From Lentisphaeria bacterium UBA2565 (lineage in GTDB: Bacteria > Verrucomicrobiota > Lentisphaeria > UBA2565), in NCBI GenBank assembly GCA_002340265.1, contig DDLT01000235.1:1-47796 (forward strand): a DNA stretch of 47,796 nucleotides, read 5' to 3'. Below, in pieces: positions 13,417-41,530 of the stretch (the first letter of the stretch is position 1; every line of letters begins with the position of its first letter). The notes below the pieces were generated by a model that was not told the DNA's origin, did not search any database, and saw nothing but the letters and a program-made list of their open reading frames with translations. The translations under genes were made by a program, and so were the position numbers.

Positions 13417-13511
13417 TTGGTTGTAAAAGGTGAAAAAATCTTTAGTTTGAATGTGGGTGAATGTTTTCTATGAATTACATTTGAACAAATCTGTTTAACT
13501 GACGCAAACTG

Positions 13512-14357: not shown

Positions 14358-14476
14358 TACCGCGCATATCAGCAAGCTCACACAGTCTTTTTTTAGAAAA
14401 AATAGGCTGTTTTTGTATATTTTATTGAAGCGCAGATTGCTGGTTACTTTCTTTAGAATAAACACAGGAGTAAACT

Positions 14477-15187
14477 GTGATAAAAATTTCTGATTGGTAT
14501 AAAGATTTTGCGGATGTGACTTTCCCGACTGTTTTTGTACGTTTGACTGACGCTGAGAAAGAGGCGTTGGTGAATAATAGCGAAGGTGAGGCGAAAGATC
14601 GTTTGTGGAATCGTCTGACTAACGCGCTTAATTCGATTCACGGTGGTGCGGTGATTAATGCGGATTGTTGTGCGCCGACTGATAGTAAGGCGTTTTGCCG
14701 TCGTCGAATCGTTCATACTCCAATCTCTTCCTGGAAGCAGTTGACTACGAGTGAAAAGGTGATTTCAGCGTTGAAGAGCGGTGAAACGGATACGTTGGCT
14801 TTAAGACCTTACCGCAGAATGGATCGTTCGCGTGAGTTCCGTCTTTTTGTGAAAAATGGCGAGTTGATTGCGGCTTCTCAGTATGATTTGAAGAAGAACT
14901 ACCCGCGTCTTGCGAAAAGACAGGATGAAATCTGGAGTGCGCTTAATGCGTTTTTTGCGGATTCTGTTAAACCGTTTTTAAGTTTTACTGATGTGGTTAT
15001 CGATGTGTATATGTGCGGTAACGGTCAGTTTCTTTTAGTAGATTTCAACGATTGGGGAGGCGAAACGGCGCCGTTGCTTTTGAGAAGTTGGGATCAGAAT
15101 ATTGAAGAGTTTTTGCAGAGTCGCCACCCGTTGATGCTTTTGGCAGCTCCTGTGAAAATGAGTGGAGACGTTTCGGTCTCTTTTTAG
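14477..15187 (+). CDS. Cdc123/D123-family ATP-grasp-like protein
   Basis: GTG start with AGGAG 5 nt upstream. The blocks VFVRL, CCAPTDSKAF, LRPYRRMDRSREFRLFVKNGELIAASQYD and VVIDVYMCGNGQFLLVDFNDWG...LLLRSW follow the order and spacing of the eukaryotic D123 family. Confidence 0.65.
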   Translation: MIKISDWYKDFADVTFPTVFVRLTDAEKEALVNNSEGEAKDRLWNRLTNALNSIHGGAVINADCCAPTDSKAFCRRRIVHTPISSWKQLTTSEKVISALKSGETDTLALRPYRRMDRSREFRLFVKNGELIAASQYDLKKNYPRLAKRQDEIWSALNAFFADSVKPFLSFTDVVIDVYMCGNGQFLLVDFNDWGGETAPLLLRSWDQNIEEFLQSRHPLMLLAAPVKMSGDVSVSF

Positions 15188-15276
15188 TTGGTTTGTTGGT
15201 TAGGTAGATAGTTGTTTAGCTTTTTGCTATTGAACCTAAAACTGACTGTTTTTTATGAATTAGTTCTTAATATAAT

Positions 15277-17529
15277 GTGATAAATATGAATAAACCTGAA
15301 CTTTTGGCTCCTGCCGGTAATCTGGCTTGTGCGCTTGCGGCTTTTGATGCGGGTGCGGATGCAGTTTATGCGGGATTGGACCGTTTTAATGCGCGTGAGA
15401 AGAGTGATAACTTTACCGCGGAACAGATGGGAAGTCTGATTGCTTATGCGCATCGTCATGCCCGCAAGGTGTATTTGACTTTGAATACGCTGGTGAAAGA
15501 GTCTGAACTTAAAGATGTGGTTGAGATGCTGGCGGAAATTGCATATTTGCGTCCGGATGCGGTGATTGTTCAGGATCTTGGTGTGATTTACATTCTTCGA
15601 AACTATTTTCCTGAGTTGACTATTCATGCATCGACACAGGTTGGTATTCACAACTCTGTCGGTATTAATGTGGCCAAACAGCTTGGTGCAGAACGTGTGA
15701 TTCTGGAACGTCAGGTGACTTTGACTGAACTTGATGAGCTGATGTCGAAGACTTCACTTGAAGTTGAGGTTTTTGTTCATGGCGCGCTTTGTTGTAGTGT
15801 GTCGGGCGGTTGTACTTTCTCATCATGGCTCGGCGGCTGGAGTGGTAATCGCGGTAAATGTAAACAGCCTTGCCGTCGTCGTTACTTTAACGAAAAGGGT
15901 AACGGCTTTTTCTTTTCTCCTCAAGATCTTTATACGCTTGATTTGATTCCACAGTTTAAGAAAATGGGCGTGGCATCGCTTAAAATTGAAGGCCGTTTGA
16001 AGAAACCGGACTATGTGACCCATGTGGTGAATGCGTATCGTATGATGATTGATAATGACGACGGTTCTAAGATTGGAGAAACGTTGAAGGCGGCTCGTGA
16101 GGAGCTTGCTAAAACTTCGGGAAGAAAGTGGTCGTCCGGTTTTTACACTGAGAAATCTCTCAAAAGTTTGATTAACTACACTCAGATTGGTGTGGCTGGA
16201 AATATCTGCGGTGAGGTGACTGATGTGAATGATAAGGCGTTCGCGGTGGATGTATCGCGTCGTCTGCACATTGGTGATCGTATTCGAATTCAACCTCGTT
16301 CGGGCGACGAAGGTACGGCGATGACTATCACGAAGATGTTTGTTGATAACCGCAGTGTGAAGAAGGCGGTTAAGGGCGAGCGTTGTGTGATTGCGTTTGA
16401 TCAGGCTAATAAAGTGCCGCGTGGACATGTGTATAAGATTGGTGTTTCGACGGATTCGATGGAATCTCGTATGAAGGTGTTACCTGAATTTAAGCCGTTG
16501 ATTGATCTCGATGTGGAAGTTTATGCGAATGAAGTTCGTGTGTTTGTGAAAGATCACTTTATCGAATGGAGCCACAAAGAGGTTTTTGCCCGCGCTGAGA
16601 AACGTCCTTGTACTGAGGAAACTTTTGTTGATGGCTTCAAGGCAACAGGCGACAGCAGCTTCACTCTTGGTAACTGTTCTGTGAAGTTTAATGGTGAATA
16701 CTTTGTGCCTGGCAGCGTGTTGAAACAGATTCGTAAGGCGTTTTGGTCATGGCTGGAATCGGAACTTTCTGTGGATGATATTCGTCTTGGGCAGCCGGGT
16801 TTGATGAAGTTTTACGAAGATTATAAGAAGTTTGACCTTGATGAAGACGCGGAGTTGAATATTTACGATCCGTCTTACGAGCGTCAGACTGATGTGTACT
16901 TTACGAAGCCGGAAAGTCATCTTCCAAAGAAGAAGTTTGATGTGTGTCGTTCGATTTTCTCTTATGACAAGAAGACGTCAGAAGTGGCATTACCGTTTTT
17001 CTGCTGTGAAGACCGTTTGGATAAGTTGCAGTCGCATATTGATCGAGCTTATGAATCGGGGATTCGCCGTTTCCGTGTGACGTCACTTTATCAGTTTGAC
17101 TTGTTGGCAAAATATTCGGATCTGAAACTTGCAGTTTCACATCCGTTCCCGATTACGAACTCTCTAGCTGTTCGTGTTCTTGACGAAGACTTTGGTGTGG
17201 CGAAGGCTCAGGCTTGGGTTGAATTGGACAAACATTCTATTAACCGTTTGGTTATGGCTTCGCCGATTAAGATTGAGATTTACAGATATGGACGAATCCC
17301 ATTGTTGATTACGCGTGCAGATATTCCTTACGAAGGGCGCATTTCTGACAGTCGTAAGAATCAGTTTGTGATTGTGAAAGATCGTTTCAGCAAGTTCAAT
17401 TACTTGTATGCTAAAGAGGTGATGATTATTCCAAAGGTGAATAATAGCGAAAACTATTATGACCTGACGAATGCGTCTTGGGGAGCAAAGGATGTGTCGA
17501 CATTCAACTTCGAGAAGGATTTCGTGTAA
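15277..17529 (+). CDS. peptidase U32 family protein, two-domain form with Fe-S cysteine cluster
   Basis: 750 aa. The N-terminus KPELLAPAGNL...AGADAVY and VHGALCCSVSGGCTFSSWLGGWSGNRGKCKQPCRRRY are classical U32 blocks. The C-terminal half is a degenerate second U32-like domain. The more likely start is the ATG at 15286. Confidence 0.9.
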   Translation: MINMNKPELLAPAGNLACALAAFDAGADAVYAGLDRFNAREKSDNFTAEQMGSLIAYAHRHARKVYLTLNTLVKESELKDVVEMLAEIAYLRPDAVIVQDLGVIYILRNYFPELTIHASTQVGIHNSVGINVAKQLGAERVILERQVTLTELDELMSKTSLEVEVFVHGALCCSVSGGCTFSSWLGGWSGNRGKCKQPCRRRYFNEKGNGFFFSPQDLYTLDLIPQFKKMGVASLKIEGRLKKPDYVTHVVNAYRMMIDNDDGSKIGETLKAAREELAKTSGRKWSSGFYTEKSLKSLINYTQIGVAGNICGEVTDVNDKAFAVDVSRRLHIGDRIRIQPRSGDEGTAMTITKMFVDNRSVKKAVKGERCVIAFDQANKVPRGHVYKIGVSTDSMESRMKVLPEFKPLIDLDVEVYANEVRVFVKDHFIEWSHKEVFARAEKRPCTEETFVDGFKATGDSSFTLGNCSVKFNGEYFVPGSVLKQIRKAFWSWLESELSVDDIRLGQPGLMKFYEDYKKFDLDEDAELNIYDPSYERQTDVYFTKPESHLPKKKFDVCRSIFSYDKKTSEVALPFFCCEDRLDKLQSHIDRAYESGIRRFRVTSLYQFDLLAKYSDLKLAVSHPFPITNSLAVRVLDEDFGVAKAQAWVELDKHSINRLVMASPIKIEIYRYGRIPLLITRADIPYEGRISDSRKNQFVIVKDRFSKFNYLYAKEVMIIPKVNNSENYYDLTNASWGAKDVSTFNFEKDFV

Positions 17530-18536
17530 TGGTTCGTCGCTTTCTGCTGCTTGTTTTAGCTGCTTTTGTCATTTCATGTGATTCTTCGAAACCTTACCAG
17601 CGTATAGAGGAGTTACTTGGAACTTTCGTGTCCGTTACTTTTTACGGTGATCGCGACGCTGCAGAGTCCGCTTCGGATGAAGTGTTTGAGTTTATTCAGG
17701 AGCTTCACAATTGTGTGAATATTTATGATAAGAAATCCGAACTATCGCAGTTGAACGCATCGGCTTTTGAAAAACCTGTTGTGTGTTCTGAACTTCTTTG
17801 GGACATTTTGCAGGATGCACGCTTTGGTTATGATATCTCAGAAGGTTACTTTGATGTGACTAGCGGCCCGTTGATGAAGCTTTGGGGATTTCACCGAAAG
17901 CGTTCGACTTGGCCGACTGAAAAGGAAGTCGCTGAAGCATTGAACAAGGTTGGGCTTTCTAAAGTGGTGTTTGATGAGAAAGCACGTTCGGTTTTCTTCA
18001 AAGAAAAAGGGATGGTTCTGGATTTTGGAGGAATTGCCAAAGGTTATGCGTTGGATCGCTGCAAAGCAATTGCTGAAAAGTATGGCATCGAGGTTGGGCT
18101 GATTGATCTTGGCGGAAATGTATACTGCTTTCCAACGGCACCTGATGGGCGTGACTCATATAATGTAGGTATTCGTCATCCACGTACGCGTGGTTTGCAT
18201 GATGCATTGCAACTGACAGACAGTTTTGTGGCAACAAGCGGTGATTATGAACGTTTTGTAGAGATTGATGGTAAGCGTGTGACGCATATTGTTAATCCTA
18301 AAACAGGTTATCCTGTAGAAAAGGTGGCTTCGGTTTCTGTTGTGACCGAAAAAGGAGTCTATTCTGATATCTTTTCGACGGCTATTTTTGTCGGAGGGAA
18401 AGAAATTTCTGAAAAAGTTGTAAAAAAATACCCTTCAACTCAGTATATGATAGTGGGAGTTGACGGCGTTGACAATTTTTCATTTTCGTTTCACGGTGAT
18501 GTTTGGCATGAAAATTGGATAAAAGACGCACAGTAA
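17529..18536 (+). CDS. apbE: FAD:protein FMN transferase ApbE, lipoprotein
   Basis: The ATG overlaps the U32 stop (TAATG). Lipobox LAAFVISC, then GGIAKGYALD and TSGDYERF blocks. The ORF-track start at 17478 lies inside the U32 gene and is unlikely. Confidence 0.9.
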   Translation: MVRRFLLLVLAAFVISCDSSKPYQRIEELLGTFVSVTFYGDRDAAESASDEVFEFIQELHNCVNIYDKKSELSQLNASAFEKPVVCSELLWDILQDARFGYDISEGYFDVTSGPLMKLWGFHRKRSTWPTEKEVAEALNKVGLSKVVFDEKARSVFFKEKGMVLDFGGIAKGYALDRCKAIAEKYGIEVGLIDLGGNVYCFPTAPDGRDSYNVGIRHPRTRGLHDALQLTDSFVATSGDYERFVEIDGKRVTHIVNPKTGYPVEKVASVSVVTEKGVYSDIFSTAIFVGGKEISEKVVKKYPSTQYMIVGVDGVDNFSFSFHGDVWHENWIKDAQ

Positions 18537-18611
18537 AGCTTCTTTATATTTTCTTGGGGAATCAGATCGATAATTATAATGTTAATATTTAAGCGAATCA
18601 GTTAGATACAG

Positions 18612-19754
18612 ATGAAAAGTGATTTTAAAATTTATGAACCGATAATCAGAGGTTCACACGGAAAACTGAAGCTCAATCATGTAGATTGGAAACAGAGTGT
18701 GGTTGTTCGTACGCCGAATTGGCTTGGTGATGCTTTAATGACGCTTCCTGCACTTTATCAACTGCGTAAAGTGATTCCGAAGAATGTGACATTTGATGTG
18801 GTTTGTCCGAGAAAACTTGCCAGCTTTTGGCAATGTGTGCCTTGGGTTGATAATATCATCGCTTTTCCGGGGCGGCGTGTAAATAGTGAAATTCGTGAGC
18901 GTATGATTAAACCGTTGAACCCTGGTGTGGCTGTGATTATGCCAAATTCGTTTGGTTCAGCAAAAGATATGTATATGCCGGGAGTTGTTCCTGTTCGTCT
19001 TGGTAGAAAAGGTAATCTACGCGGTGCACTTCTAAGTCATCGTTTGCCACAGTTTGTCCGTAAAAAAGGTAAAGATACGCATCATCAGGTAAGTGAGTAT
19101 TTTGATCTTGTGGAACCTTTTGGACGTATCGAGCGTTCTGTGGAGTTTCCTTTTTTGAATGTTGATGTGATGTTTTCTGACTCTTTTGCCTTTGAAATGC
19201 AGTTTCTTCTTGATGTGGAAGAGGAGGGGCGCCCGATTCTTGTGATGGCTCCTGGCGCGGCTTTCGGGCCTGCAAAACAGTGGCCGATTAGCAATTATAC
19301 TGAAGTGGCTAAAAGCTGGACTGCCGGCGGTGGTGCGGTTCTTATTGTGGGAACTGAGTCTGAACGTGTTCTAGGAAATCTGATTGCTGAAAGTTGCGGT
19401 CATGTTTATAATCTGGCTGGTCAGACTGATTTGAAAGAGTTGATTGCAATTCTTCAGATGGCGGATGTCTGTTTGTGTAATGACAGCGGTGCAATGCACC
19501 TTGCAGCTGCCTGCGGTTCAAAAGGTGTGGCAATTTTCGGTTCAACCTCTCCTGTGGCAACTGGCCCGATTGGCGGAACTTGGGTGATTGCTCAGCATCA
19601 CATGCCATGTTCTCCTTGCCTTGAACGTGAATGCCCGTTGCAGGTTAATAAATACCGTTGCTTAACTTCTATTACATCAGACGACGTTTACGAAGCTCTT
19701 TGTGACCTGATGATTTATTCTGTTGGTGATAAGTCGTCTGAACCTTCTTTCTAA
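18612..19754 (+). CDS. waaF: GT9 ADP-heptose:LPS heptosyltransferase (type II-like)
   Basis: VVVRTPNWLGDALMTLPAL N-terminal motif, CNDSGAMHLAAA block, 380 aa. The subtype (WaaF versus WaaC or WaaQ) is not certain. Confidence 0.8.
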   Translation: MKSDFKIYEPIIRGSHGKLKLNHVDWKQSVVVRTPNWLGDALMTLPALYQLRKVIPKNVTFDVVCPRKLASFWQCVPWVDNIIAFPGRRVNSEIRERMIKPLNPGVAVIMPNSFGSAKDMYMPGVVPVRLGRKGNLRGALLSHRLPQFVRKKGKDTHHQVSEYFDLVEPFGRIERSVEFPFLNVDVMFSDSFAFEMQFLLDVEEEGRPILVMAPGAAFGPAKQWPISNYTEVAKSWTAGGGAVLIVGTESERVLGNLIAESCGHVYNLAGQTDLKELIAILQMADVCLCNDSGAMHLAAACGSKGVAIFGSTSPVATGPIGGTWVIAQHHMPCSPCLERECPLQVNKYRCLTSITSDDVYEALCDLMIYSVGDKSSEPSF

Positions 19755-19773
19755 AAGCACTATTTAGACTTTC

Positions 19774-20964
19774 CTAAGACCACTTACCTTCACAGATATT
19801 TGGTGAGAAGAATGGTTCGTGATGATCTGTGATTGTCAGCATTGTCATTGCATAGTTCTGATAAACTCTTTCCCCGCTCATTTTATCACTGATTTGCATG
19901 GTGATATAGGCTTTTTCAACGCCAAGCATGACTTTGGGCACTTCCACTGAAAAATTGAACTTCTCTTGATCTTTTATCAATAGTTGCTGTTTATCCGCAG
20001 ACGATGAAACTACTGCAAGATTCTCTAAGTTTAGCGACAGAAAGTATAGACGAATTTCTACTTCTGCGTCTTTGTTTGAGAAGCCATTTACTGAAATTTT
20101 TAGTGAGTCACCAAACTTCACACTACTTTGCTTTTCAAGTTCCGAATCGTTAATATGAATTGCTTCGACATCAATATGCGATTTCTGTTCAATTTTAGGT
20201 TTGATTTGTCTGAACAGTTCAAGATATTTTTCGATTCCAGTCGCGATGTCATCGTATTCATGAATGACTTTTCCCTGATCCATTAAAATTACACGGTCAC
20301 AGATTCTATTTACAGAGTGGATGTTGTGAGAAATGAAAATGACCGCAGCGTTTTCACAAATTTGTTTTATCTTTGCAAAGCATTTATTTCTGAAACCAGC
20401 ATCGCCAACAGCTAGCACTTCATCAATTACCAGCACATCCGGTTCGGTATGAACTGCGATTGAGAAGCCGAGGCGTGCAACCATTCCCGAACTATAGGTT
20501 TGAACTGGACTGTCGATGGAATCTCGTATTTCAGCGAAGTCGATAATCTCATCAATTTTAAGATCGACCTCTTTTTTAGACATTCCAAGAATTGCCCCTT
20601 TTATGTAGATATTCTCACGACCTGTCAAAAGGGTATTGAAGCCCGCTGTCAACTGAATAAGTGCACAGACACGACCTTTCACAGATATATGACCGGTTTC
20701 CGGTTTCAGTAAGCCGATAAGCATTTTAAGAAGCGTGCTTTTTCCTGCACCATTGGGCCCGATAATACCGACGCACTCTCCGCGAGAAATGTTGAAGTTA
20801 ACATTTCGAACTGCGTAAAAGTCATGCTTCCTTAATTCATCATTTTTCCTGATCCCGAGAACCTCTTTACAGATGTCGGTCAATCCGTACCACAGTGAGG
20901 TTTTAAAGTCACGGCAGAACTTTTTGCTGATGTTATTAACTTTTACTAGTGTGTCGTTGTTCAT
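19774..20964 (-). CDS. polysaccharide/O-antigen ABC exporter ATPase (Wzt/TagH type) with C-terminal beta-sandwich domain
   Basis: Walker A GPNGAGKST, signature YSSGM, Walker B VLVIDE, plus a roughly 150-aa C-terminal extension as in Wzt. Confidence 0.9.
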   Translation of the reverse strand: MNNDTLVKVNNISKKFCRDFKTSLWYGLTDICKEVLGIRKNDELRKHDFYAVRNVNFNISRGECVGIIGPNGAGKSTLLKMLIGLLKPETGHISVKGRVCALIQLTAGFNTLLTGRENIYIKGAILGMSKKEVDLKIDEIIDFAEIRDSIDSPVQTYSSGMVARLGFSIAVHTEPDVLVIDEVLAVGDAGFRNKCFAKIKQICENAAVIFISHNIHSVNRICDRVILMDQGKVIHEYDDIATGIEKYLELFRQIKPKIEQKSHIDVEAIHINDSELEKQSSVKFGDSLKISVNGFSNKDAEVEIRLYFLSLNLENLAVVSSSADKQQLLIKDQEKFNFSVEVPKVMLGVEKAYITMQISDKMSGERVYQNYAMTMLTITDHHEPFFSPNICEGKWS

Positions 20965-20973
20965 AAATATCTA

Positions 20974-21834
20974 TTAGTTTGAAATACGTTCAATAAGGTG
21001 AGGAAGCGTCAGTTTTATAATGACCCACCCAGAAAAGAATATTAAAAGTGATGCAAAGGCAATAAGTCCAAATTGAACAGTCATCAATTCTCCTGTCCCC
21101 GTGAGCCATGCTCTTCCAGTTGTAAGTATTGGAGTTACTGGGTTCAGTTCTGTCAACTTTGCTACAAAACCATTAAAAGGTTTTGGATATACAATTGGCG
21201 TTAAATAAAACCAAAATTGGACCGCAAAGCCCAACACTCTTGACACATCATGATATAAAACTCCTACAGGAACCAGTAAAGTTCCAATTGAGGTTCCAAG
21301 AAGTATTAGAGCGAATATTGCTAAGGGGAATAGTAGAATCGAAGAAGAAAAAGAGATAGGGCTGAAAGCCATTACGATTACGATAATGATAAAGCGAATG
21401 ATAGAGTTGAATAAAACGCTACCAAGTCCGGAAATAAGTAAGGCTTCACGTGGGAAGTCTATTTTGGCAAGCATATTTTTTGCTCCGAGGAAACTGTTTA
21501 TAGGCGTGGATAGCGATTCGGCAAAACATTTCCAAAGCAGTGTTCCGATAAGCACGAAAACAGGGTAGGGGATTTCCGGTTCGGCGATATTGATAATATT
21601 GCTGGATTTTAGCAGTGTCCAGATTCCGGCAGTCACCAAAGCTGGAACAAAAATCCAGATAAAGCCGAGAAGGCTATGACGATATTGTGCAGATATGTTT
21701 CTGTGAAAAAGCCTCCAGGAAAGTTCTCGGGAGGCTATGAAGTCGTCTTTAATCTCTTTTAGGAGTTTTAGCGGAGATTTTATCAAAGGCTCGGAACTAT
21801 TGATCTGTTCCGAGCTTTTTTTATAGTTATGCAT
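20974..21834 (-). CDS. ABC-2 type polysaccharide exporter permease (Wzm/TagG type)
   Basis: 286 aa with six predicted TM segments. It lies directly upstream of the Wzt-like ATPase with a 9-nt gap. Confidence 0.85.
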   Translation of the reverse strand: MHNYKKSSEQINSSEPLIKSPLKLLKEIKDDFIASRELSWRLFHRNISAQYRHSLLGFIWIFVPALVTAGIWTLLKSSNIINIAEPEIPYPVFVLIGTLLWKCFAESLSTPINSFLGAKNMLAKIDFPREALLISGLGSVLFNSIIRFIIIVIVMAFSPISFSSSILLFPLAIFALILLGTSIGTLLVPVGVLYHDVSRVLGFAVQFWFYLTPIVYPKPFNGFVAKLTELNPVTPILTTGRAWLTGTGELMTVQFGLIAFASLLIFFSGWVIIKLTLPHLIERISN

Positions 21835-21843: not shown

Positions 21844-24800
21844 CTATTTTAGAATTAAATCTTCATCTTCAGTCGTTGAATTGAAAATCCAGTAGCCAGT
21901 TGCAGGAAGCAGGAAGTCTCCATTGTTAAGCGGAGCATAGTCTTGGGCTCCATGGTTCCACTCGTTGGCATTTTGCATTGTACTTTTACTGTTATATAAA
22001 TATCTTGCAGCTGGTCCAACTAAATTCCAACCAGGCTTAACGGTAACTGTTTTGATACTGTATATTCCAGAGAATTTAATTGGTTCCACTGGGATATTTA
22101 CGCAAAATGCCCAGAAGCCCGTTAATGGCTGTAATTTAGACTTAAGAAAGTCAAGGTTTACTTGGTTGATTACGTCTCCTTTGCTATCCCATATACTGTC
22201 GATAGTAGACTTAGCAACCGTATCATAAGTTTGGTTAGTCGGGGTATATATAGAGATGCTTTCAACATATGACATCATTTCGTGTAATTTTGTTTCATCA
22301 ATTTCATTTGGTAATGAAATCATATTCCAGCCAATTTGTAAATCAAGGTCAAATTCGTAGGGGTGAGTCCCATTGGTGAATTCATCATAATCACTGATAC
22401 CATCACCGTCTGAGTCTTGGTTGCCGCCACTAGATAGTTCGGTACTTCCAAAATATATTTCTTCCCACATATCTGATATAGAGTCATTATCTAGGTCACT
22501 GTCAAAGCTTGCAGAGTTTCGCCAAAATATCGTAGTTTTGGTTACTGACGAGTTACCTAGGGTGTCATATGCGAAAAAATGAAGATCATAACGCCCATAG
22601 TTCATCTCGGGGAAATCTTCTGCCTTAAAGTAGTATTCTGGTATTGCTAAAAGTGAATCGATACTATTTGACTCGAAGACTTTGCCTGTTTTGTCACTTG
22701 TAAGAGTAAATCGATAACCTGCTATTTCACTACCACTATCTCCAGCAGTACTACCTTCACAGTAAATTTGGCTGTCAATGATACCAACGCCAGAGTGGGC
22801 TCTAGCTTCATCCCATGTTGGCCTTAAAATCAATGGGCTATTCGGTCCTGTTCTATCAACGTTGAAAGTATGTTTGCTCCATAAAAGTTGTTCATCATTC
22901 AAGGTACCCCCCGAATCTTCTGGATTAATTTTGGTATAAACTTTCATGGTAACGTTAAACAATTCTGATACAGAACTTATATCAATGTCAAGTTCAGTCC
23001 CACCGTTGATAAGTTCCGCTTTTTGCTCATCTGATAATGTCGTTACATAAATCGGGTCTAGATCACCGCTTTCTGATGCGTGATAACTGATGTTTATTCT
23101 GTTGAGGTAAGCCTCAGGGATATTGTTCTCCCAGTCACCCTTTAGGGTTAACGAGATTGAGTTTTTGTAGGAAGAGTTAGTTCCAAGTTTAGCTGATCGC
23201 GGTTTTTCTCCACGAACTTGTACTGACGGATCTCCAAAAAAGTGATACATCTTATTATTTTGGTCATAAGTCGTGTATTTTTTCGCATATTCATAAACTT
23301 CGCCCCAGGTTATTGACTCATCTGTTGAAATTTTGTGCACTATTTTATTTGCAAAGTTAGCTTCCCAAGATGCTCCAGCCAAACTACTTGCTGCTATGAT
23401 ATTAACTGCACCTTTTCGGTGATCCCCAGGAGCTGTGATATTGTCTCCTGTCTCGGATGCAAGCTTTCCTGCAATATATTGATAGCACAATGGAGCATAA
23501 TACGCTGAGTACTTTGCATTATGGTAACTTGCCATAAAGAAGCGACCTGTATTACAGGTAGCCCATACAAAACATCCAGGTTTTGTAATACCGAAATTGT
23601 TACTTTCACCATTGTTATCATCCTTATAGTCAATGGACTTAAGAACCTTATAGTTATCTAGGAATTCAGATGCCCCATGCCCTTGATAAATTGAGTTTGT
23701 AATCCCGGTTATATTAGAATTTATGATTTTACCATTCATTTTATCTGCCCCAGTATAAGGCGTTGTACTCGAGTTATCGTCAGTTATGGCTTCATTAACA
23801 TCGTCAAGCATGATAGTAGGTAGCTTATCCCCATGGTGCTTCAATTGTTTCTCGGAAAAGGATGCCCCCTCGTTTTCACCGGCCAAGAGAGAAAAGGTAT
23901 CAGGCGCCTTATAGTCAATACGCTTTTTTAGCCAGGATGTTAGGTCTGACTCTGTATAAACAGGAAGGCGAGCAATTACTTTGTCAAGCTTATTCCAGTT
24001 GCAGTATATATCATCACTACTAGTGAAACCTCCCTGAGAACTATAGAAATAACCTGTTGGTACCCCAGGTGTTTGTACATGGTATTTAACAGGAGAATTT
24101 TTCTTGTAGTCAGGAGAGGTAGAACTGACTAAGAGGACATTTCTCAAGTGTGGGTTTTGATTCAGAAAGTTGATAATCCCATGAGGCCCATAAATCCCAC
24201 CTCCGTAAACATCAATAATTTGTTCAATTGTAACATATATGGGGCTAACGCCTGCAATTTCGTGAACCGCTTGAATCTTCGGCTCAGTTGTATCTCCGTC
24301 TTCGTCAATGTCAGTTGTATCCTTTAGCTCATGCCAAATTTTATAAAGATCTGAACTTATATAACTACTGTTATTTTGCCAAGGAGCTAAAGTATAATCG
24401 GAGAAGTCATCTTCTCCCGGTAACTTAGTTTGTCTTAATTGCTGGAAATAGTTATAATCGCTAGGAATTATCGCAACGTAGTCCTTTTGGTTTGTGTTTA
24501 CTGCCCTTAGCTCTTTTTCTTCATCAAATGTTAGGGGACTGGAGCTCCCTCTAACGGGCCCTGATGTTACGTGTATGCTTTTGAAAGTCCCCGGTATAGT
24601 GAAAATGTTTGAATCATTTTTTGAGCCTATTAATGATTCTTTACCGACTTTATTTCCCATGTTAACTGCTATGTTTGCATTGTATAGCCTAATAGTTCCG
24701 CTGTACTCTTCAGCCACTTTTATGTTGAGATGCGGTGGCAGGGCTCCATATTCACTGTTAGGAAGGTCTGTGTTCACTTTAGCAGGCTCAAGTTTATATC

Positions 24801-25755
24801 CTTCATCGTCTTGCTCTCCTTCTTCAAGAACTGGTACGTATAGTTCGAAAATATCAGGATAGACTTTAAAGCCATCAAGTGGGGTCACTGTTATTCGAGC
24901 ATTGGTGGCTCTGTTTAATACTGCAGACGGAAACTCTGCTTCAAATAAAAATTGACCAATACTGTTTAGATGACAGTTTATTGTGTGTGTATCATTAATC
25001 TTTACCTCTATGGTGCGTAGCTCAGAGCTGTGGTTGTCACTGTCATAGGTTGATAAAATCAACTTTGCATTCTTGTTCATATTTACTTTAGGAGTGTCAA
25101 GAGGTATGTCATAATTCTGGGTTGTTGTTATTTTTTTCCCATTCCAAGGAGTTCCATTTGCCCCACTTAGTGCCAAGTTTAGATATAAACTTTCATCTTT
25201 TTTGTAAATTCGGGTCATCTCTCCATTAGCATTCACAACAGCGTTGTATCCATTATTTCCTAGCCAGTTTGTCTCCTGAGTTTGGTTGGATAACGTTATC
25301 GGAGTAGACGCAAGGTTTTGGATCGTAAGATCGCCTGCCCAAACGTAGTTTCGGTTAGTGTAGAAGTCATCCACGGGTTGAACAAACGTGTACCAATTAT
25401 TGCCTAGTTTGTAGAGAGGCAGTTTTACTCCCGCATTGTAAATTGAGAAGTTTTGTCCCTGTTTATGAAATCCGATAGTCTGTGCATTTGAATTTTTTAC
25501 TTCAGTTACATCTGAAAGATCGAGATTACCTTCTGAATCCCTAAATGGTATAGCTTCTGTAATATTGTACAAGCCGGCAATTGCGATAGGTTCAGATCTT
25601 CTTGCATAACCTGTTTGAACAGGAGTTTCTGTCGTATAAAGCCTTCTATGCCCGTCAAAATGTACTTTTTGACCAACCACAGACATTGTTTCACAGTATG
25701 TCTTAGTTGCTGAAAATAGTGAAACTAAAAATAGAAAAACATATTTTTTTATCAT
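21844..25755 (-). CDS. large secreted protein with probable clan CD (gingipain/C25-like) protease core and Ca-binding TSP3-like repeats
   Basis: 1303 aa, signal peptide MIKKYVFLFLVSLFSA. Candidate His/Cys dyad IYQGHGASEF ... GCFVWATCNTGRFF, 35-41 residues apart. C-terminal DSDLDNDSISD / DSDGDGISDYDE acidic repeats. There is a 9-nt gap to the Wzm gene. Confidence 0.6.
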   Translation of the reverse strand: MIKKYVFLFLVSLFSATKTYCETMSVVGQKVHFDGHRRLYTTETPVQTGYARRSEPIAIAGLYNITEAIPFRDSEGNLDLSDVTEVKNSNAQTIGFHKQGQNFSIYNAGVKLPLYKLGNNWYTFVQPVDDFYTNRNYVWAGDLTIQNLASTPITLSNQTQETNWLGNNGYNAVVNANGEMTRIYKKDESLYLNLALSGANGTPWNGKKITTTQNYDIPLDTPKVNMNKNAKLILSTYDSDNHSSELRTIEVKINDTHTINCHLNSIGQFLFEAEFPSAVLNRATNARITVTPLDGFKVYPDIFELYVPVLEEGEQDDEGYKLEPAKVNTDLPNSEYGALPPHLNIKVAEEYSGTIRLYNANIAVNMGNKVGKESLIGSKNDSNIFTIPGTFKSIHVTSGPVRGSSSPLTFDEEKELRAVNTNQKDYVAIIPSDYNYFQQLRQTKLPGEDDFSDYTLAPWQNNSSYISSDLYKIWHELKDTTDIDEDGDTTEPKIQAVHEIAGVSPIYVTIEQIIDVYGGGIYGPHGIINFLNQNPHLRNVLLVSSTSPDYKKNSPVKYHVQTPGVPTGYFYSSQGGFTSSDDIYCNWNKLDKVIARLPVYTESDLTSWLKKRIDYKAPDTFSLLAGENEGASFSEKQLKHHGDKLPTIMLDDVNEAITDDNSSTTPYTGADKMNGKIINSNITGITNSIYQGHGASEFLDNYKVLKSIDYKDDNNGESNNFGITKPGCFVWATCNTGRFFMASYHNAKYSAYYAPLCYQYIAGKLASETGDNITAPGDHRKGAVNIIAASSLAGASWEANFANKIVHKISTDESITWGEVYEYAKKYTTYDQNNKMYHFFGDPSVQVRGEKPRSAKLGTNSSYKNSISLTLKGDWENNIPEAYLNRINISYHASESGDLDPIYVTTLSDEQKAELINGGTELDIDISSVSELFNVTMKVYTKINPEDSGGTLNDEQLLWSKHTFNVDRTGPNSPLILRPTWDEARAHSGVGIIDSQIYCEGSTAGDSGSEIAGYRFTLTSDKTGKVFESNSIDSLLAIPEYYFKAEDFPEMNYGRYDLHFFAYDTLGNSSVTKTTIFWRNSASFDSDLDNDSISDMWEEIYFGSTELSSGGNQDSDGDGISDYDEFTNGTHPYEFDLDLQIGWNMISLPNEIDETKLHEMMSYVESISIYTPTNQTYDTVAKSTIDSIWDSKGDVINQVNLDFLKSKLQPLTGFWAFCVNIPVEPIKFSGIYSIKTVTVKPGWNLVGPAARYLYNSKSTMQNANEWNHGAQDYAPLNNGDFLLPATGYWIFNSTTEDEDLILK

Positions 25756-34328: not shown

Positions 34329-35045
34329 TTATCTTTTTACGCGCTTTTGGGTCATACAAAAGGCACCGACGATAAAAACTAATAGGTTTATATAAAAGAG
34401 CAGTGGGTTGCGAAACCAGTTGCTCTTTTTCATTTTTGGGTAAACAAACTTCGTTCCGCTTACTCTCTCAATGAATTCTATGTCTGCGCTATACTTTTCC
34501 AGCGGTAGATGATTTGCTTTGTTTGGTAGAATAAAAGCGATAGATCCTTTTTTCTCACAGCTTAAGATTTTGTAGAATGCAGTTGGAATAGGAACTTTTG
34601 AATTTGCCAATTTAACTTCGTAGTCGAAAAGTGTTCCAGTGACGATTTTCAATTCAGTTTCATTCCAACCACGAATTTTTTCCTCTAAACTGAGCCAACT
34701 GCCTCTGTTAAACTCCGGTTTCTGCGGCGTAATATTAGTCATCAGAAATGTAGATTGAAGTGCTTCCTTAGAAAAGTTTAAATCGCCTGCTGGAACTAAA
34801 TGTCCTCTATCAAAACCACTTTTTGCATAGTCTTTTGACTCGTAAGAGTTAACCCGTTCGTCTGTAAGATATTTATTTCCTTTTCTTGAAAACTCTTTTT
34901 CTGAACTTATCAGACTGTGCTTTGTCCAAACTGTCGTTCTTAACTCATTATCCCAACCGACAGAATAGTAATCATTTTCGAGAACTGTCGGCTCTGCAAA
35001 AACGATTGATGTGATAACTGAAATAAATGTGAAAAGTTTAAGCAT
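34329..35045 (-). CDS. DNA/RNA non-specific endonuclease (NUC1/EndoG beta-beta-alpha-Me family), signal peptide plus C-terminal TM anchor
   Basis: FDRGHLVPAGD active-site motif followed by NITPQ and FNRG. N-terminal MLKLFTFISVITSIVFA. C-terminal LLFYINLLVFIVGAFCM followed by basic residues. Confidence 0.85.
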   Translation of the reverse strand: MLKLFTFISVITSIVFAEPTVLENDYYSVGWDNELRTTVWTKHSLISSEKEFSRKGNKYLTDERVNSYESKDYAKSGFDRGHLVPAGDLNFSKEALQSTFLMTNITPQKPEFNRGSWLSLEEKIRGWNETELKIVTGTLFDYEVKLANSKVPIPTAFYKILSCEKKGSIAFILPNKANHLPLEKYSADIEFIERVSGTKFVYPKMKKSNWFRNPLLFYINLLVFIVGAFCMTQKRVKR

Positions 35046-36652: not shown

Positions 36653-36688
36653 AAAACAAAAAAGGCGCGAAGTCAAAAACTCCACGCC
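36653..36688 (-). terminator. intrinsic terminator after the GspK-like gene
   Basis: Minus strand reads ggcgtggag-tttttga-cttcgcgcc, followed by ttttttgtttt. Confidence 0.6.
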
Positions 36689-36710
36689 TGAATTTAAGTA
36701 TTAGTTATCT

Positions 36711-39641
36711 CTAGTAACTTTCTAGTACGGTATTTTCAAGAATTTCAAAACGACCCGTATCTTTAGGACGTTTCATAATTGTCATAATTTTTTGTTGACC
36801 CATAATTTTAAACCATGAATCATTTCTGATATCTGATTCTCCAAGAAGTTCAAGTTTTACATACCCATTAAGGCGAGGGTCATCATCATCACCTTGTGCA
36901 ATATCATCAAGAATCTGAGATTGTACAGACGACATATATGTCAATTTTTGATAAGTCGATACATAGCGATACAGGTTGAAGTTAATTTTGACCTGATCAG
37001 CAAGTTTACCTATCAACTCTTCAGCATAGAAATCTGCCTTCTCCTTGTCATAGCCACCTTTATAGTTTAGCTTATTTTTACCAGGGTTATCGTACATCAC
37101 GCACCAAATACCTTCTTTATCCCCTATTTGTGAGGCGAGGTGGTCTTTGACGTAACCAGCCTTCTTAGGTTTTATTCCCTCATCACCACCTTTTTTTATT
37201 GCCGTGAGCAATGCGTTTTTATCAGTGCCAGTAAGCGAAGAAGGCACAGGATAGACCTTGGAACTTACGCCGGTAAAAGTGGAGTTCATTGTTGCTTGGT
37301 TATTTTCAAATATATGTTTAAAAATAAAATCCCAATATTTCTTATTTGGATTAAAAATATTTATGCATGGGTAAGTTTCAATCTGCTCTGTTAGCTTTAT
37401 TTGATTCAGCAGTGCTGCATCTCCCATTGCGTATTTGCCAGTATATTCATAGCTTGGGTTCTCCCATGCCATATTATTATTTAATTGGGAACCCCCCGCT
37501 ATTTTCCCATATTGCCCCGCTACTTTTCCCCCTTGCTTTTCCCCCTGACCTACTTTACAGGATGACTTAAGGTTGATTGTTCGCCATGGCTCTCCACGAT
37601 GAATACAACCTAGCTCCCATAGGGTTGTAATTTGGGCATTTCGAATAAATCCTGTAGAAGGTTTGAATGGGTTTGACTCATTATCAATTAAGTTCTCTGA
37701 GTCTGGGTAAAAATCGTTAGAGATGGTAATCTCGGAAAATGACTCGCCGTCACCCTGTACCCAGTTACTGTCGTGGGTTTTAGCGTAAAGGTTTCGATGC
37801 TGGACCTCTCCTGCAAAGTTTAGATAGTTATTACAGCGTGGATCTCTAAATTCAACGAGAAAACTATGTGGGGCACCTTCTCTCAGGTTCTTGAGCTCTC
37901 CCTTGCCAAAGCCCTTTAATAAGGTCACATCAGACAACGCTCCACTTGTTTGCACTTCCACCACAAGCTTATCGAATTTAAGGATGTCTAAGTTTTTAAA
38001 CTCTGTATCAATCAACTCAGTTGATTTTACCTCCACTATCTGGGTCGAATTTTGGCTGCATGAGGTCAATTCTGTCGAGCTGGTAATGACCGTTTCTGCA
38101 TCTTGTAATATGGCTTTGAAAGATACATCGGCACTGAGTTCTTTATTGTAGATGTTGGCTAGTTGAACTTTTGCCTTAACTTCCTTAATCTTGAAAAGGG
38201 TCTTACTTTGGGTACCATCAGCATCTATGCTTGGAGTAAATTTTACGGTGATATTTACTCCAGCAATATACGGAGTCTCTTCCAAACCACAGTATTCAAT
38301 TTTATCAGTTGTCTCAATATCAGTGTAATCTGTTAGTGCCCTAGAGTCAGAATCACTATAATCTATGAGATTCGCTGCGACTTGCTTTTGTAACTGCTTA
38401 CTATATTGGGCATTTTTATTATCAAGTGAACCTGATATATGCGCTAACCAAGGTATGAAGTCAACATTTTTGTTGATATAAATGTTGTTTTTATTATTAT
38501 TTTTTTCACGATCAATGACCTGTTCAAGAACAGCTGCTGCCTGCTGTCCATCACCTTTACGGAATTTTGAAGTATCAAAAAAATCATATTGCTGTTGGTA
38601 GGTTTCAGGAGCTTGTATCAGTGTTTCAACATTCTTTTCTTTTGTTAAGTTACCGACAAAGTAGCGGTGTATAAAGCGTCTTTCGGTCCAATCATTATTT
38701 AAGTTTTTAGGGATGTAGTGCATAAACTCTCCCGTGGGGAAAGAGTAAGGGGTAAATAAGTTATATGCATCTCTGGCATTTCGTTCTTCTGCTGGTTTTG
38801 GATATTTATGGTCTTTGGCAAATAACCCTTCGTTCCAGATATGACGCCATGATTCCCAAAAACGTGGTTCCCCATTTAGTTCGGGTAAATCTGATAACCC
38901 TTTACTGAGAGCTCCTTTGTCCAGATTTAATTTGTCAAACATGGTCTCTATATCGTAGAAATTTGAGTGCAATAGATCATGATCTCTATTATAAAGGATT
39001 CCGTTTAAGTCGAACTTGATTGATTCATCTACCATAAAATACATATATCGTCCAGTGATAAATGTATTCTGCGATGCAATATTCCCGGCAATTCTATCAC
39101 GCCCTGTTTGAACTTCATCTTGCAGTGCTATTTTTGAATTGTCCAGGTCAGTGTCGGAGTTTCTACCGAAATCATTCCACCATGCAAGGTTGTTTTTTCC
39201 ATTTGCGCTTAGAGAGGTAGAATATATGTCATCAACTTCAGGAGTTGCTGTAAATCCCAGATTGAAAGCAATTGCTTGTCCATCTTTTTTGTCTTCGAAT
39301 TTACTTATTCCACCTCTACTCCAGTCTGGGTTTCCGTCATGGATTATTTTATCAGATGTATAGTCATAAGCTAAAGGCCAGTCTTCAGTATTTTTACCTG
39401 CGGATTTAAGCTGTTGTATTTTGGATGCTTTTTCACCCCCTGCCTGAAGGGGGAACAGGGTTAGGACATTGCTATCTGCTGAGAACCTTTTGGTTGCTGC
39501 ATCATCGACATGAAAACTTGATACCATAAGGTCTATTCGGGCAGTAAAGATAAAACTTACCACTATTACTAAAAGCAGGCTTAACATCCCAAGGGAAATT
39601 AAAAGAGCAATCCCTTTTTCATTTTTACTATTGAATGTCAT
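36711..39641 (-). CDS. giant GspK-like minor pseudopilin
   Basis: 976 aa. The N-terminus NEKG-IALLISLGMLSLLLVIVV is a prepilin-like hydrophobic helix lacking Glu5, as in GspK. It overlaps the upstream pseudopilin gene by 14 nt. Confidence 0.6.
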   Translation of the reverse strand: MTFNSKNEKGIALLISLGMLSLLLVIVVSFIFTARIDLMVSSFHVDDAATKRFSADSNVLTLFPLQAGGEKASKIQQLKSAGKNTEDWPLAYDYTSDKIIHDGNPDWSRGGISKFEDKKDGQAIAFNLGFTATPEVDDIYSTSLSANGKNNLAWWNDFGRNSDTDLDNSKIALQDEVQTGRDRIAGNIASQNTFITGRYMYFMVDESIKFDLNGILYNRDHDLLHSNFYDIETMFDKLNLDKGALSKGLSDLPELNGEPRFWESWRHIWNEGLFAKDHKYPKPAEERNARDAYNLFTPYSFPTGEFMHYIPKNLNNDWTERRFIHRYFVGNLTKEKNVETLIQAPETYQQQYDFFDTSKFRKGDGQQAAAVLEQVIDREKNNNKNNIYINKNVDFIPWLAHISGSLDNKNAQYSKQLQKQVAANLIDYSDSDSRALTDYTDIETTDKIEYCGLEETPYIAGVNITVKFTPSIDADGTQSKTLFKIKEVKAKVQLANIYNKELSADVSFKAILQDAETVITSSTELTSCSQNSTQIVEVKSTELIDTEFKNLDILKFDKLVVEVQTSGALSDVTLLKGFGKGELKNLREGAPHSFLVEFRDPRCNNYLNFAGEVQHRNLYAKTHDSNWVQGDGESFSEITISNDFYPDSENLIDNESNPFKPSTGFIRNAQITTLWELGCIHRGEPWRTINLKSSCKVGQGEKQGGKVAGQYGKIAGGSQLNNNMAWENPSYEYTGKYAMGDAALLNQIKLTEQIETYPCINIFNPNKKYWDFIFKHIFENNQATMNSTFTGVSSKVYPVPSSLTGTDKNALLTAIKKGGDEGIKPKKAGYVKDHLASQIGDKEGIWCVMYDNPGKNKLNYKGGYDKEKADFYAEELIGKLADQVKINFNLYRYVSTYQKLTYMSSVQSQILDDIAQGDDDDPRLNGYVKLELLGESDIRNDSWFKIMGQQKIMTIMKRPKDTGRFEILENTVLESY

Positions 39642-40455
39642 AGTTTCTCGGTCCTTGTTTTATAAAAATTCTCTTGAAAAATGTTTTCTTTGTTTTAATC
39701 GGGTTACTCGCAGCCTCCGTTTGTGGGTCAAAGAGAGTGACTTCAACATCTACACTTGTGGGGAGGTTGTTATAGTTGCGCATGACGGCAATTATCGCCT
39801 CGTCCATTATCACTACTCTGCCTCCACACATTGGGTTGTCATTACCCCCCTTAGTCTTAGGAGTTCCTGCTGTTACATAGTTTTGGGTTGTAGGCGTGGG
39901 CATTCGAGCTGCACATTGTATATCCAATACACCTTTTGCTATTGGATAGAAATTTGAACCGCTATCTTTCCATTTACTTGAGCTTTGCCCTGCTAATTCA
40001 CCATAAAAATTCCACTTTGATGATCTGTTTGTGGTTACTGATCTTTTAAAAAATCTTACGGGTTCTCCACTAAGGTCTGTGACTTCTTCTCTATGTATTG
40101 TTTGTGAGTCTACTTTGTAGGTGATTTCAGCCAGTGTGGAACTGTTGTCTGCTGCATCATTCGCCAGCGTGGCAACCATTAAGGGAAAAGGCCCATTTCC
40201 CTTTGAATCATTTATCATGGCAAAAGGTATCTCTCTTTTGAACTCCTTTGATGCAACCGCATGTCGTAAGTCATTTTCTATAGTATCAAAAATCAGTTGT
40301 GCATTAGCCTGTACTCTTGATATTCCCTCTGTAATTTTTTTTACACTTTGAGCTTGGACGAAGAAGTTCATCAATATAACCATAATTATGGAGAAAATAG
40401 CAAGAGACGCAATAAGCTCAATCACCGTAAATTTTTTAGTAAACATAGTACTCAA
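39628..40455 (-). CDS. prepilin-type N-terminal domain protein (GspJ-like minor pseudopilin)
   Basis: MSTMFTKK-FTVIELIASLAIFSIIMVIL has F+1 and E+5 with a hydrophobic helix. 275 aa. Confidence 0.75.
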   Translation of the reverse strand: MSTMFTKKFTVIELIASLAIFSIIMVILMNFFVQAQSVKKITEGISRVQANAQLIFDTIENDLRHAVASKEFKREIPFAMINDSKGNGPFPLMVATLANDAADNSSTLAEITYKVDSQTIHREEVTDLSGEPVRFFKRSVTTNRSSKWNFYGELAGQSSSKWKDSGSNFYPIAKGVLDIQCAARMPTPTTQNYVTAGTPKTKGGNDNPMCGGRVVIMDEAIIAVMRNYNNLPTSVDVEVTLFDPQTEAASNPIKTKKTFFKRIFIKQGPRNYDIQ

Positions 40456-41230
40456 ACTCCCTACTATTTCTTTTTTCTATAGCCGCTTCGGCAGGCCACT
40501 CAATTCGAATTACTAGTCCGCATGAGTCTTTGTCTGTTATAGAGAGCTGCGTCCCTGAATAAGACCTCATGCCTATTTTAGGTGAAACTACAACAGTTGC
40601 GATGCAGTCAAATTCGACAATATTTTCGTTATCAACTTCAGTTGTCCACTTCATGTAGTGGCACTTGGACCATGTGTCTTTCTCTACGTCCATATTGCTA
40701 TTGACGGCATTTTGAGCTCCAGTTGGGTTGGCATGCCCACTTTTTCTTAGCTCAAAGTTGCTAGGGAAATTTCTATCTTGTTTTGGGTTGGGAATAAGTA
40801 GCTCCCCATTTTCAAAATCATATTCTTCAAATTCCTGAGGCTCAGGTAGCCCCATTTCCCAAACTGTTTTTGTTTTAGTTCCTGCTATTTGACGCATATT
40901 CATTTCAGTTGCAGTGATGTAGCCTGTTTCAAAACCAAAAGAACGCATTTTACTGGCATAGTTAGCTTCTTTAGCTACATAAATAGAAAGGTCGAATCGT
41001 TCGCATTCTGCTTTGGTGTAATTGGCCATGGTTTCTGCGGCTAGACTGACGTAGAAGTTGTCCTGCGCTTTTCGGTGGGTTTTTAGCCCGATGGATAGGA
41101 GAGAAATTACTGAGAGAAAGCCGATTGATATCACGGCCATCGCTAAGAGTATCTCTATCATGTTGAAGTTTCGTCTGTTCATTTTTGTCCCCGTTATAGA
41201 TGTTGTCACAACTTGTTCTGTTGTGTTCAA
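40436..41230 (-). CDS. prepilin-type N-terminal domain protein (GspH/I-like minor pseudopilin)
   Basis: RRN-FNMIEILLAMAVISIGFLSVISLL has F+1 and E+5. The more likely start is Met17 (41182), which gives a short basic leader MNRRN. Confidence 0.75.
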   Translation of the reverse strand: MNTTEQVVTTSITGTKMNRRNFNMIEILLAMAVISIGFLSVISLLSIGLKTHRKAQDNFYVSLAAETMANYTKAECERFDLSIYVAKEANYASKMRSFGFETGYITATEMNMRQIAGTKTKTVWEMGLPEPQEFEEYDFENGELLIPNPKQDRNFPSNFELRKSGHANPTGAQNAVNSNMDVEKDTWSKCHYMKWTTEVDNENIVEFDCIATVVVSPKIGMRSYSGTQLSITDKDSCGLVIRIEWPAEAAIEKRNSREFEYYVY

Positions 41231-41496: not shown

Positions 41497-41522
41497 ACAA
41501 AAAAGGGAACCTTTCGGCTCCC
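41497..41522 (-). terminator. intrinsic terminator of the sulfatase 41531-43024
   Basis: Minus strand reads gggagcc-gaaa-ggttccc, followed by ttttttgtgttt. Confidence 0.7.
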
Positions 41523-41530
41523 TTTAAAAC

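Follow-up and report, generated by a model that had tools for sequence, protein, structure and literature searches.

Verrucomicrobium and Chthoniobacter carry an uncharacterised, multi-copy four-gene cassette whose products are known as the Verru_Chthon cassette proteins A to D, and type IV pili provide further examples of minor-pilin sets with large tip subunits, such as FimU-PilVWX-PilY1 of Pseudomonas and PilA2-ComZ of Thermus. Modular pilins such as PilB of Streptococcus sanguinis have also been described (PMC8179133). In the secretion system of type II (T2SS), the minor pseudopilins GspI, GspJ and GspK constitute the tip and priming complex of the pseudopilus (PMC4471445), the structure of which was reported by Korotkov and Hol (2008, as summarised in PMC4471445). 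Assembly of the pseudopilus is affected in gspI, gspJ and gspK mutants, not in gspH mutants (PMC4471445). Here, we compare these systems with three overlapping genes on the minus strand of a 47,796-nucleotide (nt) stretch of DNA from Lentisphaeria bacterium UBA2565 (contig DDLT01000235.1; ‘the window’ refers to this whole stretch), which is part of a 62.6-kb metagenomic scaffold and has identical copies in two other assemblies. The trio is probably a minimal version of a family of minor-pseudopilin cassettes found widely, and in several copies, among the Lentisphaerota. It would prime a fibre as its tip, and its position among sulfatase genes appears to be a matter of local synteny.

Gene order and N-termini of the trio

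Calling of open reading frames (ORFs) places the following genes, with pilin N-termini of the I, J and K type, on the minus strand (a slash separates the leader from the predicted mature N-terminus):

40436..41182, minus strand: B-like gene (GspI/PilV-like), 248 amino acids (aa) from ATG, N-terminus MNRRN/FNMIEILLAMAVISIGF
39628..40446, minus strand: C-like gene (GspJ-like), 272 aa from the ATG chosen by gene callers, N-terminus MFTKK/FTVIELIASLAIFSII
36711..39641, minus strand: large A-like gene (GspK-type N-terminus), 976 aa, N-terminus ...NEKG/IALLISLGMLSLLLV, without Glu at position +5

Longer frames exist for the two smaller genes, both opening at a TTG codon: the B-like ORF can be extended to 40436-41230 (264 aa, from TTG at 41230) and the C-like ORF to 39628-40455 (275 aa, from TTG at 40455). 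Since the N-terminus MNRRNFNMIEIL is common to the B-like homologues, the B-like gene most likely begins at ATG 41182. Adjacent genes overlap by 20 and 14 nt when the longest ORFs are taken, as a preliminary description of the window had noted when it first pointed to three overlapping prepilin-type genes, and by 11 and 14 nt if the second gene starts at its ATG.

That description had also likened the trio to GspI, GspJ and GspK, and the comparison holds up: the N-terminal helices are type-specific, the order is that of gspI-J-K, relatives carry a gene resembling GspH and Verru_Chthon D upstream, and genes with a T2SS_G domain lie in at least five related loci. The pattern of Glu at +5 that sets I and J apart from K is found as well, with FNMIE in the B-like, FTVIE in the C-like and IALLIS in the large protein. 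Both smaller proteins start with a short basic leader; position +1 is Phe, position +5 is Glu, and the hydrophobic helix spans about 20 residues.

Family size and cassette architecture

A word-indexed search returned 14 relatives of the large protein, and full-length orthologues are intact at 48-69% identity. An exhaustive profile search extended the family to 4,173 representative clusters (clustered at 50% identity) at E <= 1e-3, with 620 remaining at the stricter E <= 1e-30. Most are full-length, with 800-1,100 aa. Scanning one genome per species gave 149 relatives, nearly all of them from Lentisphaerota (Victivallales, Lentisphaerales, Oligosphaera ethanolica DSM 24202 and strain zth2, CP071032), joined by three metagenome-assembled genomes labelled Verrucomicrobia. 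Related genomes carry from two to at least five cassette copies, with tandem copies in L004 and L032.

The usual cassette order is an H/D-like gene, B, C, the large A gene and a gene for a small secreted protein. Counts over about 82 independent loci fill these positions as follows:

Upstream pilin-like genes: 0-3 per locus, FTLVE-type N-terminus, 44 genes
B-like position: about 215 aa, F-N-[ML]-[IV]-E, 38 upstream of a C and A pair
C-like position: about 284 aa, FTLIE, 53 upstream of the large gene
Large-protein position: 800-1,400 aa, 81 proteins of at least 700 aa
Downstream position: small secreted non-pilin protein of about 195 aa, 49 loci

As the same N-terminal types recur in the same order in more than 50 independent loci, the arrangement of the trio is not a product of chance. 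The K-type start of the last pilin-like gene is equally constant: Gly followed by a hydrophobic helix opens 68 of the 81 large proteins, and in all 68 position +5 is F, L, M, Y, I or V, never Glu. The window copy and its close relatives, which have neither the upstream pilin-like gene nor the small downstream gene, represent the minimal B-C-A form, and no pilin-motif ORF other than the trio was found in the window. Given that priming needs I, J and K but not H (PMC4471445), the lack of an H-like gene is compatible with a functional trio.

Seen against this family, two traits that the preliminary description had presented as unusual lose their singularity. The K-like member is indeed about three times the usual size (976 aa compared with 327 aa for E. 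coli GspK), and the operon does lie apart from a secretion machine; both traits, however, are the family norm, with large subunits of 800-1,400 aa and cassettes that are usually orphans.

Compared with its orthologue in L089, the C-like gene has a ratio of nonsynonymous to synonymous substitutions (dN/dS) of about 0.07, the ratio being mostly not computable owing to saturated synonymous sites. Together with the intact full-length orthologues, this value supports a functional operon that would be under purifying selection.

Several cassettes show additional features. The small downstream protein (about 165-230 aa) is Lys-rich, carries a signal peptide, belongs to no Pfam family and follows immediately after the large subunit in its 49 loci (e.g. 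L005:13293-13880, L006:10040-10537 and L004:12834-13388); it may be an unrecognised fifth component. The tandem copies consist of a large subunit plus a small secreted protein, three times in L032:8948-19849 and twice in L004:6352-13388, behind one H/B/C-like set, and look like alternative tip subunits on one shared base. At L006:11829-20043, behind a cassette that has two GspG-type genes, lies a gene of over 4,645 aa that contains LamG and fn3 repeats and could encode a cargo or a fibre-associated adhesin. The large homologue at L045:16864-20403 and at L059:1681-5220 (minus strand) is split into ORFs of 136, 778 and 318 aa, probably a pseudogenised cassette copy. Other recurrent downstream genes were considered as cassette parts and rejected: those of about 430 aa and about 360 aa encode a MurD-like ligase (10 loci) and RdgC, housekeeping synteny of one orthologous group of cassettes, and those of about 550 aa have N-termini of the housekeeping type.

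Family matches, structural models and machine genes

At each cassette position, the best family match is the corresponding Verru_Chthon protein. Scanned member by member against NCBIfam, the C family matches Verru_Chthon C in 46 of 47 cases (best 1e-14) and gspJ in 29 of 47, the B family Verru_Chthon B in 28 of 37 and PilV in 24 of 37, and the large family Verru_Chthon_A in 6 of 12 (best 6.5e-12) and GspK in 7 of 12 (best 7.7e-5), the latter two confined to the N-terminal ~60 residues. The gene upstream of B in relatives matches Verru_Chthon D in 9 of 10 cases, once over 194 of 196 profile positions (E 3.6e-12), with GspH second. Within the window, the C-like protein matches Verru_Chthon C (2e-7), and the B-like protein has weak N-terminal matches to PilV (7e-8), GspI (1e-3) and Verru_Chthon B (4e-3). 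The Lentisphaerota family is probably sister to, and diverged from, the ‘Verru_Chthon cassette’ known from Verrucomicrobia.

Alignment of the family profiles with E. coli K-12 pseudopilins by hhalign is restricted to the alpha1 helices. It is most extensive for the C family, which covers the whole helix of GspJ (66 columns, probability 95%), and shorter for the large family and GspK (38 columns, 47%) and for the B family and GspI (38 columns, 18%). Beyond the helix, the large family has an invariant block, QVAANLIDYxDxD ... YCGLEExPY, with a likeness to IADYIDVDDSPRFHGAEDSFY of E. coli GspK; with the helix removed, hhalign pairs the second halves of this GspK-like motif, at non-significant values (E 0.07-0.37).

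AlphaFold2 models of the two proteins examined are compatible with a pilin fold past the helix, without confirmation from Foldseek. The B-like model (predicted local distance difference test, pLDDT, 69.9; predicted template modelling score, pTM, 0.68) has a 59-residue N-terminal helix followed by a C-terminal antiparallel sheet of high local confidence. For the large protein (pLDDT 62.6, pTM 0.60), a helix at residues 8-65 (58 residues) and ill-defined stretches are predicted along with a confident beta-sandwich at about 458-600.

The subunits that such a cassette would prime can be sought next to its relatives. GspG-like ORFs occur in 21 loci, and six of the ten that were scanned, from L006 (two genes), L020, L021, L049 and L051, pass the Pfam T2SS_G gathering score; the major subunits associated with the cassettes are of the GspG class. 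Core machine genes adjoin cassettes in only one or two of 86 loci: a GspE homologue in the Lentisphaera locus L029 (E 1e-122) and one possible secretin in L013. No GspF, L, M or O was found near the cassettes in 1.4 Mb of related loci. The window itself, in agreement with the preliminary description, contains no secretion ATPase, platform, secretin, prepilin peptidase or major pseudopilin according to Pfam and motif searches. Like many minor-pilin operons, these cassettes are therefore orphans as a rule.

A number of results weigh against the assignment to a fibre-priming tip. All matches to hidden Markov models stay below the curated cut-offs and mostly involve the N-terminal helix only; even the best relatives reach 44-48 bits with the Verru_Chthon models. 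Measured against the cut-offs for GspI, GspJ and GspK (TIGR01707, TIGR01711 and NF037980) and for the Verru_Chthon proteins (A, TIGR02600; B, TIGR02598; C, TIGR02599; D, TIGR02596), the B-like protein misses all (GspI 19.5 vs 44.35 bits, Verru_Chthon B 17.3 vs 51.4, PilV 33.1 vs 52.2), as does the C-like protein (GspJ 14.7 vs 64.85 bits, Verru_Chthon C 30.6 vs 256.5), while the large protein alone has no Pfam and no NCBIfam match (cut-offs of 130 bits for GspK and 332.3 bits for Verru_Chthon_A). None of the three proteins falls into a Pfam family. Profile searches of the three families against all PDB sequences retrieved no globular domain of GspI/J/K, PilV/W/X or another minor pilin: nothing for the A and B families, and N-terminal helices of major pilins only for the C family. 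Both structural models are only moderately confident. In the PDB, Foldseek found no significant match for the B-like model (best E 0.33), and only generic immunoglobulin (Ig)-like sandwiches from glycoside hydrolases for the large one (best E 4.6e-3). Finally, the search for machine genes covered the window, itself a piece of a metagenomic scaffold, and the related loci. The cleavage site and the sulfatase neighbourhood, treated below, each add a further point of this kind.

Proposed mechanism

If the GspI-J-K paradigm summarised in PMC4471445 applies, the B-like, C-like and large proteins would insert in the inner membrane via their N-terminal helices, and the B-like and C-like proteins would pair and then recruit the large K-type subunit. 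The latter would act as the cap, since no further subunit could top it. The resulting trimer would prime the polymerisation of GspG-type pseudopilins by an ATPase/platform/secretin machine encoded elsewhere in the genome. In such a fibre, the ~900-residue outer part of the large subunit, including the Ig-like beta-sandwich, would be located at the tip and may confer binding specificity, be it for a cargo or a surface, and the multiple cassettes of a genome would provide alternative tips for one machine. The place of the trio between sulfatase genes would then reflect local synteny rather than functional coupling.

What this implies extends beyond the window. Taken by itself, the locus is ordinary for its family and points to no sulfatase-linked device for adhesion or secretion. 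The family matters more: it comprises 4,173 clusters of putative tip subunits without a Pfam model or any experimental work, forms the Lentisphaerota counterpart of the uncharacterised Verru_Chthon cassettes, and is linked to the GspH-I-J-K priming complex by its gene order and the adjacency of GspG-domain genes.

The residue at position -1

The preliminary description had called attention to the residue before the predicted cleavage site, and it is indeed Asn in the B-like and Lys in the C-like protein, Gly being present in the large protein only. What was presented as a peculiarity of the operon is nonetheless a trait of the lineage. Among all pilin-like ORFs of the related loci, 7 of 167 have Gly at -1 and 12 of 167 have Gly anywhere from -3 to -1; 20 different residues are found at position -1, R, Y, F, N, P, H, K and S among them, and the leaders are short and basic. 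Independent alignments of the B and C families show an invariant Glu at +5 and, in no fewer than 90% of members, Phe or Tyr at +1. Even the pseudopilins that pass the T2SS_G score are without Gly, with N, F, A, H, D and Q at -1, whereas all five E. coli controls, GspG to GspK, have it. Examples of genuine GspG-domain proteins lacking Gly at -1 are encoded at L006:10482-11666, L021:12052-14763 and L020:12670-13971.

Gly at -1 has been called absolutely critical for cleavage by prepilin peptidase (PMC4471445), and cleavage of the B-like and C-like proteins is thus only predicted. This leads to the rival explanation that survives best, namely that the proteins are uncleaved, signal-anchored components of a membrane-tethered periplasmic or surface complex that has another role and forms no fibre. 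Asn and Lys stand where Gly is required in every bacterial system studied (PMC4471445), the lineage has Gly in only those 7 of 167 ORFs, neither profile search nor Foldseek detects a globular likeness to solved pilins, and no prepilin peptidase homologue turned up in the 1.4 Mb of related loci. An uncleaved anchor is still unlikely. A near-constant aromatic residue at +1 and an invariant Glu at +5 are hard to explain unless cleavage exposes the N-terminus for packing in a fibre, genuine GspG-domain pseudopilins of the same lineage share the non-Gly site, and conservation extends to both the H-I-J-K-like gene order and the loss of Glu5 in the K-type protein; a peptidase gene would not be expected beside cassettes anyway.

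The conservation of Phe at +1 and Glu at +5 beside a freely varying -1 residue rather suggests that cleavage persists with a relaxed specificity. A broader proposal can be put forward tentatively, although we consider it somewhat doubtful: that Lentisphaerota assemble GspG-type fibres from subunits with almost any residue at -1 (Gly in ~4%) and fixed Phe+1 and Glu+5, either through a peptidase of relaxed or different specificity or by a route without canonical cleavage, and that the giant-tip cassettes are interchangeable tips of a single machine. We found no paper on non-Gly prepilin sites in bacteria of the Planctomycetes-Verrucomicrobia-Chlamydiae (PVC) superphylum. Reviews treat this Gly as both invariant and critical. 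Its lineage-wide loss runs counter to what textbooks state for bacterial prepilins and is the most interesting remaining point, bearing as it does on substrate recognition by prepilin peptidases and on the diversification of type IV filament systems in the PVC superphylum.

Sulfatase neighbourhood and genomic setting

Besides housekeeping genes, the window around the trio contains five sulfatase genes in full. A sixth sulfatase is cut by the window end, so the cluster of six that had been described is complete in five genes and partial in one. As had also been noted, the genes on either side of the trio encode paralogous sulfatases of the iduronate type: they are 44% identical to each other (E 1e-134), with a match between the downstream one and human iduronate-2-sulfatase (E 3e-48). 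A gene for a 759-aa protein with an FGE-sulfatase (sulfatase-modifying factor) domain lies at 9579-11858 on the minus strand, some 25 kb away from the cluster.

The following signals, all of them consensus matches only, surround the trio:

36663..36689, minus strand: terminator-like hairpin after the large gene, 12-bp stem with 6 GC pairs and a T-run, 22 nt past the stop codon
41363..41391, minus strand: promoter-like site TTGACA-17-TACATT, matching the consensus at 10 of 12 positions, within the 300-bp gap that precedes the trio
41502..41525, minus strand: terminator-like hairpin ending the upstream sulfatase gene, from a consensus scan

Because terminator-like hairpins bracket it, the trio looks like a transcription unit of its own, and the terminator that the preliminary description assigned to the operon is matched by the hairpin after the large gene. 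Promoter-like sites are as numerous in the region as expected from shuffled sequence and hence amount to weak evidence.

From this setting, the preliminary description had proposed that the fibre tip is a dedicated one, serving adhesion to sulfated polysaccharides or secretion towards them and coupled to the sulfatase cluster. The location between two paralogous S1-type sulfatases inside the cluster speaks for such coupling. So does a relative with an only 48%-identical large protein, in which the order sulfatase-trio-sulfatase-endonuclease-RuvA is kept; on account of this retained neighbourhood, a clade-specific link between the trio and the sulfatases may exist, which is the further point against a purely incidental position. 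There is precedent for the idea, too: a ‘fishing-rod’ capture of polysaccharides by pilin-like fibres has been proposed for Planctomycetes, presented in PMC12078418 as a hypothesis without assigned genes (citing Boedeker et al. 2017), and laminarin has been reported to induce secretion-system genes in cultured Lentisphaerae (PMC11361711).

A survey of sulfatases near cassettes nevertheless makes coupling very unlikely. With a hidden Markov model built from the five sulfatases of the window, the 10 kb around each of the approximately 82 independent cassette loci were scanned, and a single locus (L030) had a sulfatase in range, with none in loci of the genus Lentisphaera. This is the lack of association that the proposal itself had named as evidence to the contrary. 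In the 62%-identity relative (L089), the large gene is directly followed by endonuclease, RuvA and PdxJ genes, with no sulfatase in between. Moreover, the sulfatase adjacent to the trio is 86% identical between the window and the 48%-identity relative, whereas the trio, at 51-65%, diverges much faster; terminators separate the trio from both sulfatase neighbours; and neither Pfam nor Foldseek detects a carbohydrate-binding domain in the large protein. The rarity of sulfatases near cassettes, the arrangement in L089, the faster divergence of the trio and the terminators together argue that the sulfatase neighbourhood is incidental. The trio appears to be anchored to the endonuclease-RuvA-PdxJ block instead, while the surrounding sulfatases vary.

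The endonuclease of this block (34329-35045, minus strand) is a DNA/RNA non-specific enzyme with a DRGH motif, a signal peptide at its N-terminus and a hydrophobic anchor at its C-terminus. Its synteny with the trio extends to the three close relatives; near cassettes elsewhere, none was found.

A role as the tip of a competence pilus for DNA uptake, with the large subunit as a DNA receptor comparable to ComZ of Thermus that cooperates with the adjacent secreted nuclease, is hardly credible: the synteny of the signal-peptide-bearing endonuclease and RuvA with the trio in all three close relatives, weak ComGE/ComGF matches in the C-like family, and the RdgC and exonuclease VII genes that lie close to one group of orthologous cassettes would fit it, but no endonuclease or RuvA homologue lies near any of the ~80 other cassettes (RdgC in 4 loci, XseA in 2), the ComG matches cover the N-terminal helix only and are weaker than those to Verru_Chthon and GspJ, and the window has no ComEA, ComEC or DprA genes.

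Other features of the window

Positions 12001-20000 have a strongly positive GC skew (0.18-0.31) compared with about 0 in the remainder of the window and coincide with a series of genes on the plus strand (hydrolase, D123/ATP-grasp, U32 peptidase, ApbE and heptosyltransferase). A 1,303-aa ORF (21844-25755, minus strand) that lacks a Pfam domain and whose N-terminus resembles a signal peptide lies directly upstream of a pair of ABC-2 permease and ATPase genes (20974-21834 and 19774-20964). At 7285-8543 on the plus strand, a 160-aa ORF without a Pfam domain overlaps a Fic/DOC-domain gene by 4 nt, and the two may form a toxin-antitoxin-like pair.

Comparison with known systems

Hypothetical polysaccharide-capturing pili, as PMC12078418 presents them for Planctomycetes, share with the present case a setting in PVC bacteria rich in sulfatases and pilin-like proteins; they differ in that no association between cassettes and sulfatases was found here.

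The minor-pilin sets of type IV pili are comparable in being orphan operons located away from the machine and in having a large tip subunit that gives the binding property, and the weak PilV-type match of the B-like protein fits in with this. A difference lies in the major subunits, which are of the GspG type rather than the PilA type beside the cassettes of relatives. Furthermore, Pfam and NCBIfam searches detected no PilY1-type domain in the large protein or its neighbours, and no ComZ homology was detected either.

Closer still is the GspH-I-J-K set (XcpU-V-W-X) of the T2SS. The trio has the same gene order, overlapping genes and the largest subunit last; the B-like and C-like proteins share Phe at +1 and Glu5 with GspI and GspJ, and the large protein, like GspK, has Gly followed by a hydrophobic stretch without Glu5. 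In relatives, an H-like gene upstream of the cassette and G-like genes nearby complete the parallel to GspH and GspG. Unlike in the T2SS, however, the similarity is limited to the alpha1 helix, with curated cut-offs missed, the K-like subunit is three times larger and has an Ig-like sandwich, and the I-like subunit is twice as large. Moreover, the B-like and C-like proteins are without Gly at -1, and the cassettes lie apart from the machine genes in several copies per genome.

We found no paper on Verru_Chthon cassettes or on pseudopilins of Lentisphaerota. The Verru_Chthon cassettes share with the present family the large A subunit (a profile of 1,296 positions), the multi-copy occurrence and the PVC superphylum. 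They are set apart by the host phylum, here Lentisphaerota, by the three genes without D in the window, even though many relatives are D-B-C-A, by the additional small secreted protein downstream in relatives, and by the scores of the window proteins, which fall far under the cut-offs. Taken together, the feature in the window is real and belongs to a known kind of system, the minor-pseudopilin priming and tip cassette, in a PVC-specific lineage that has been catalogued for Verrucomicrobia only, as the ‘Verru_Chthon cassette’.

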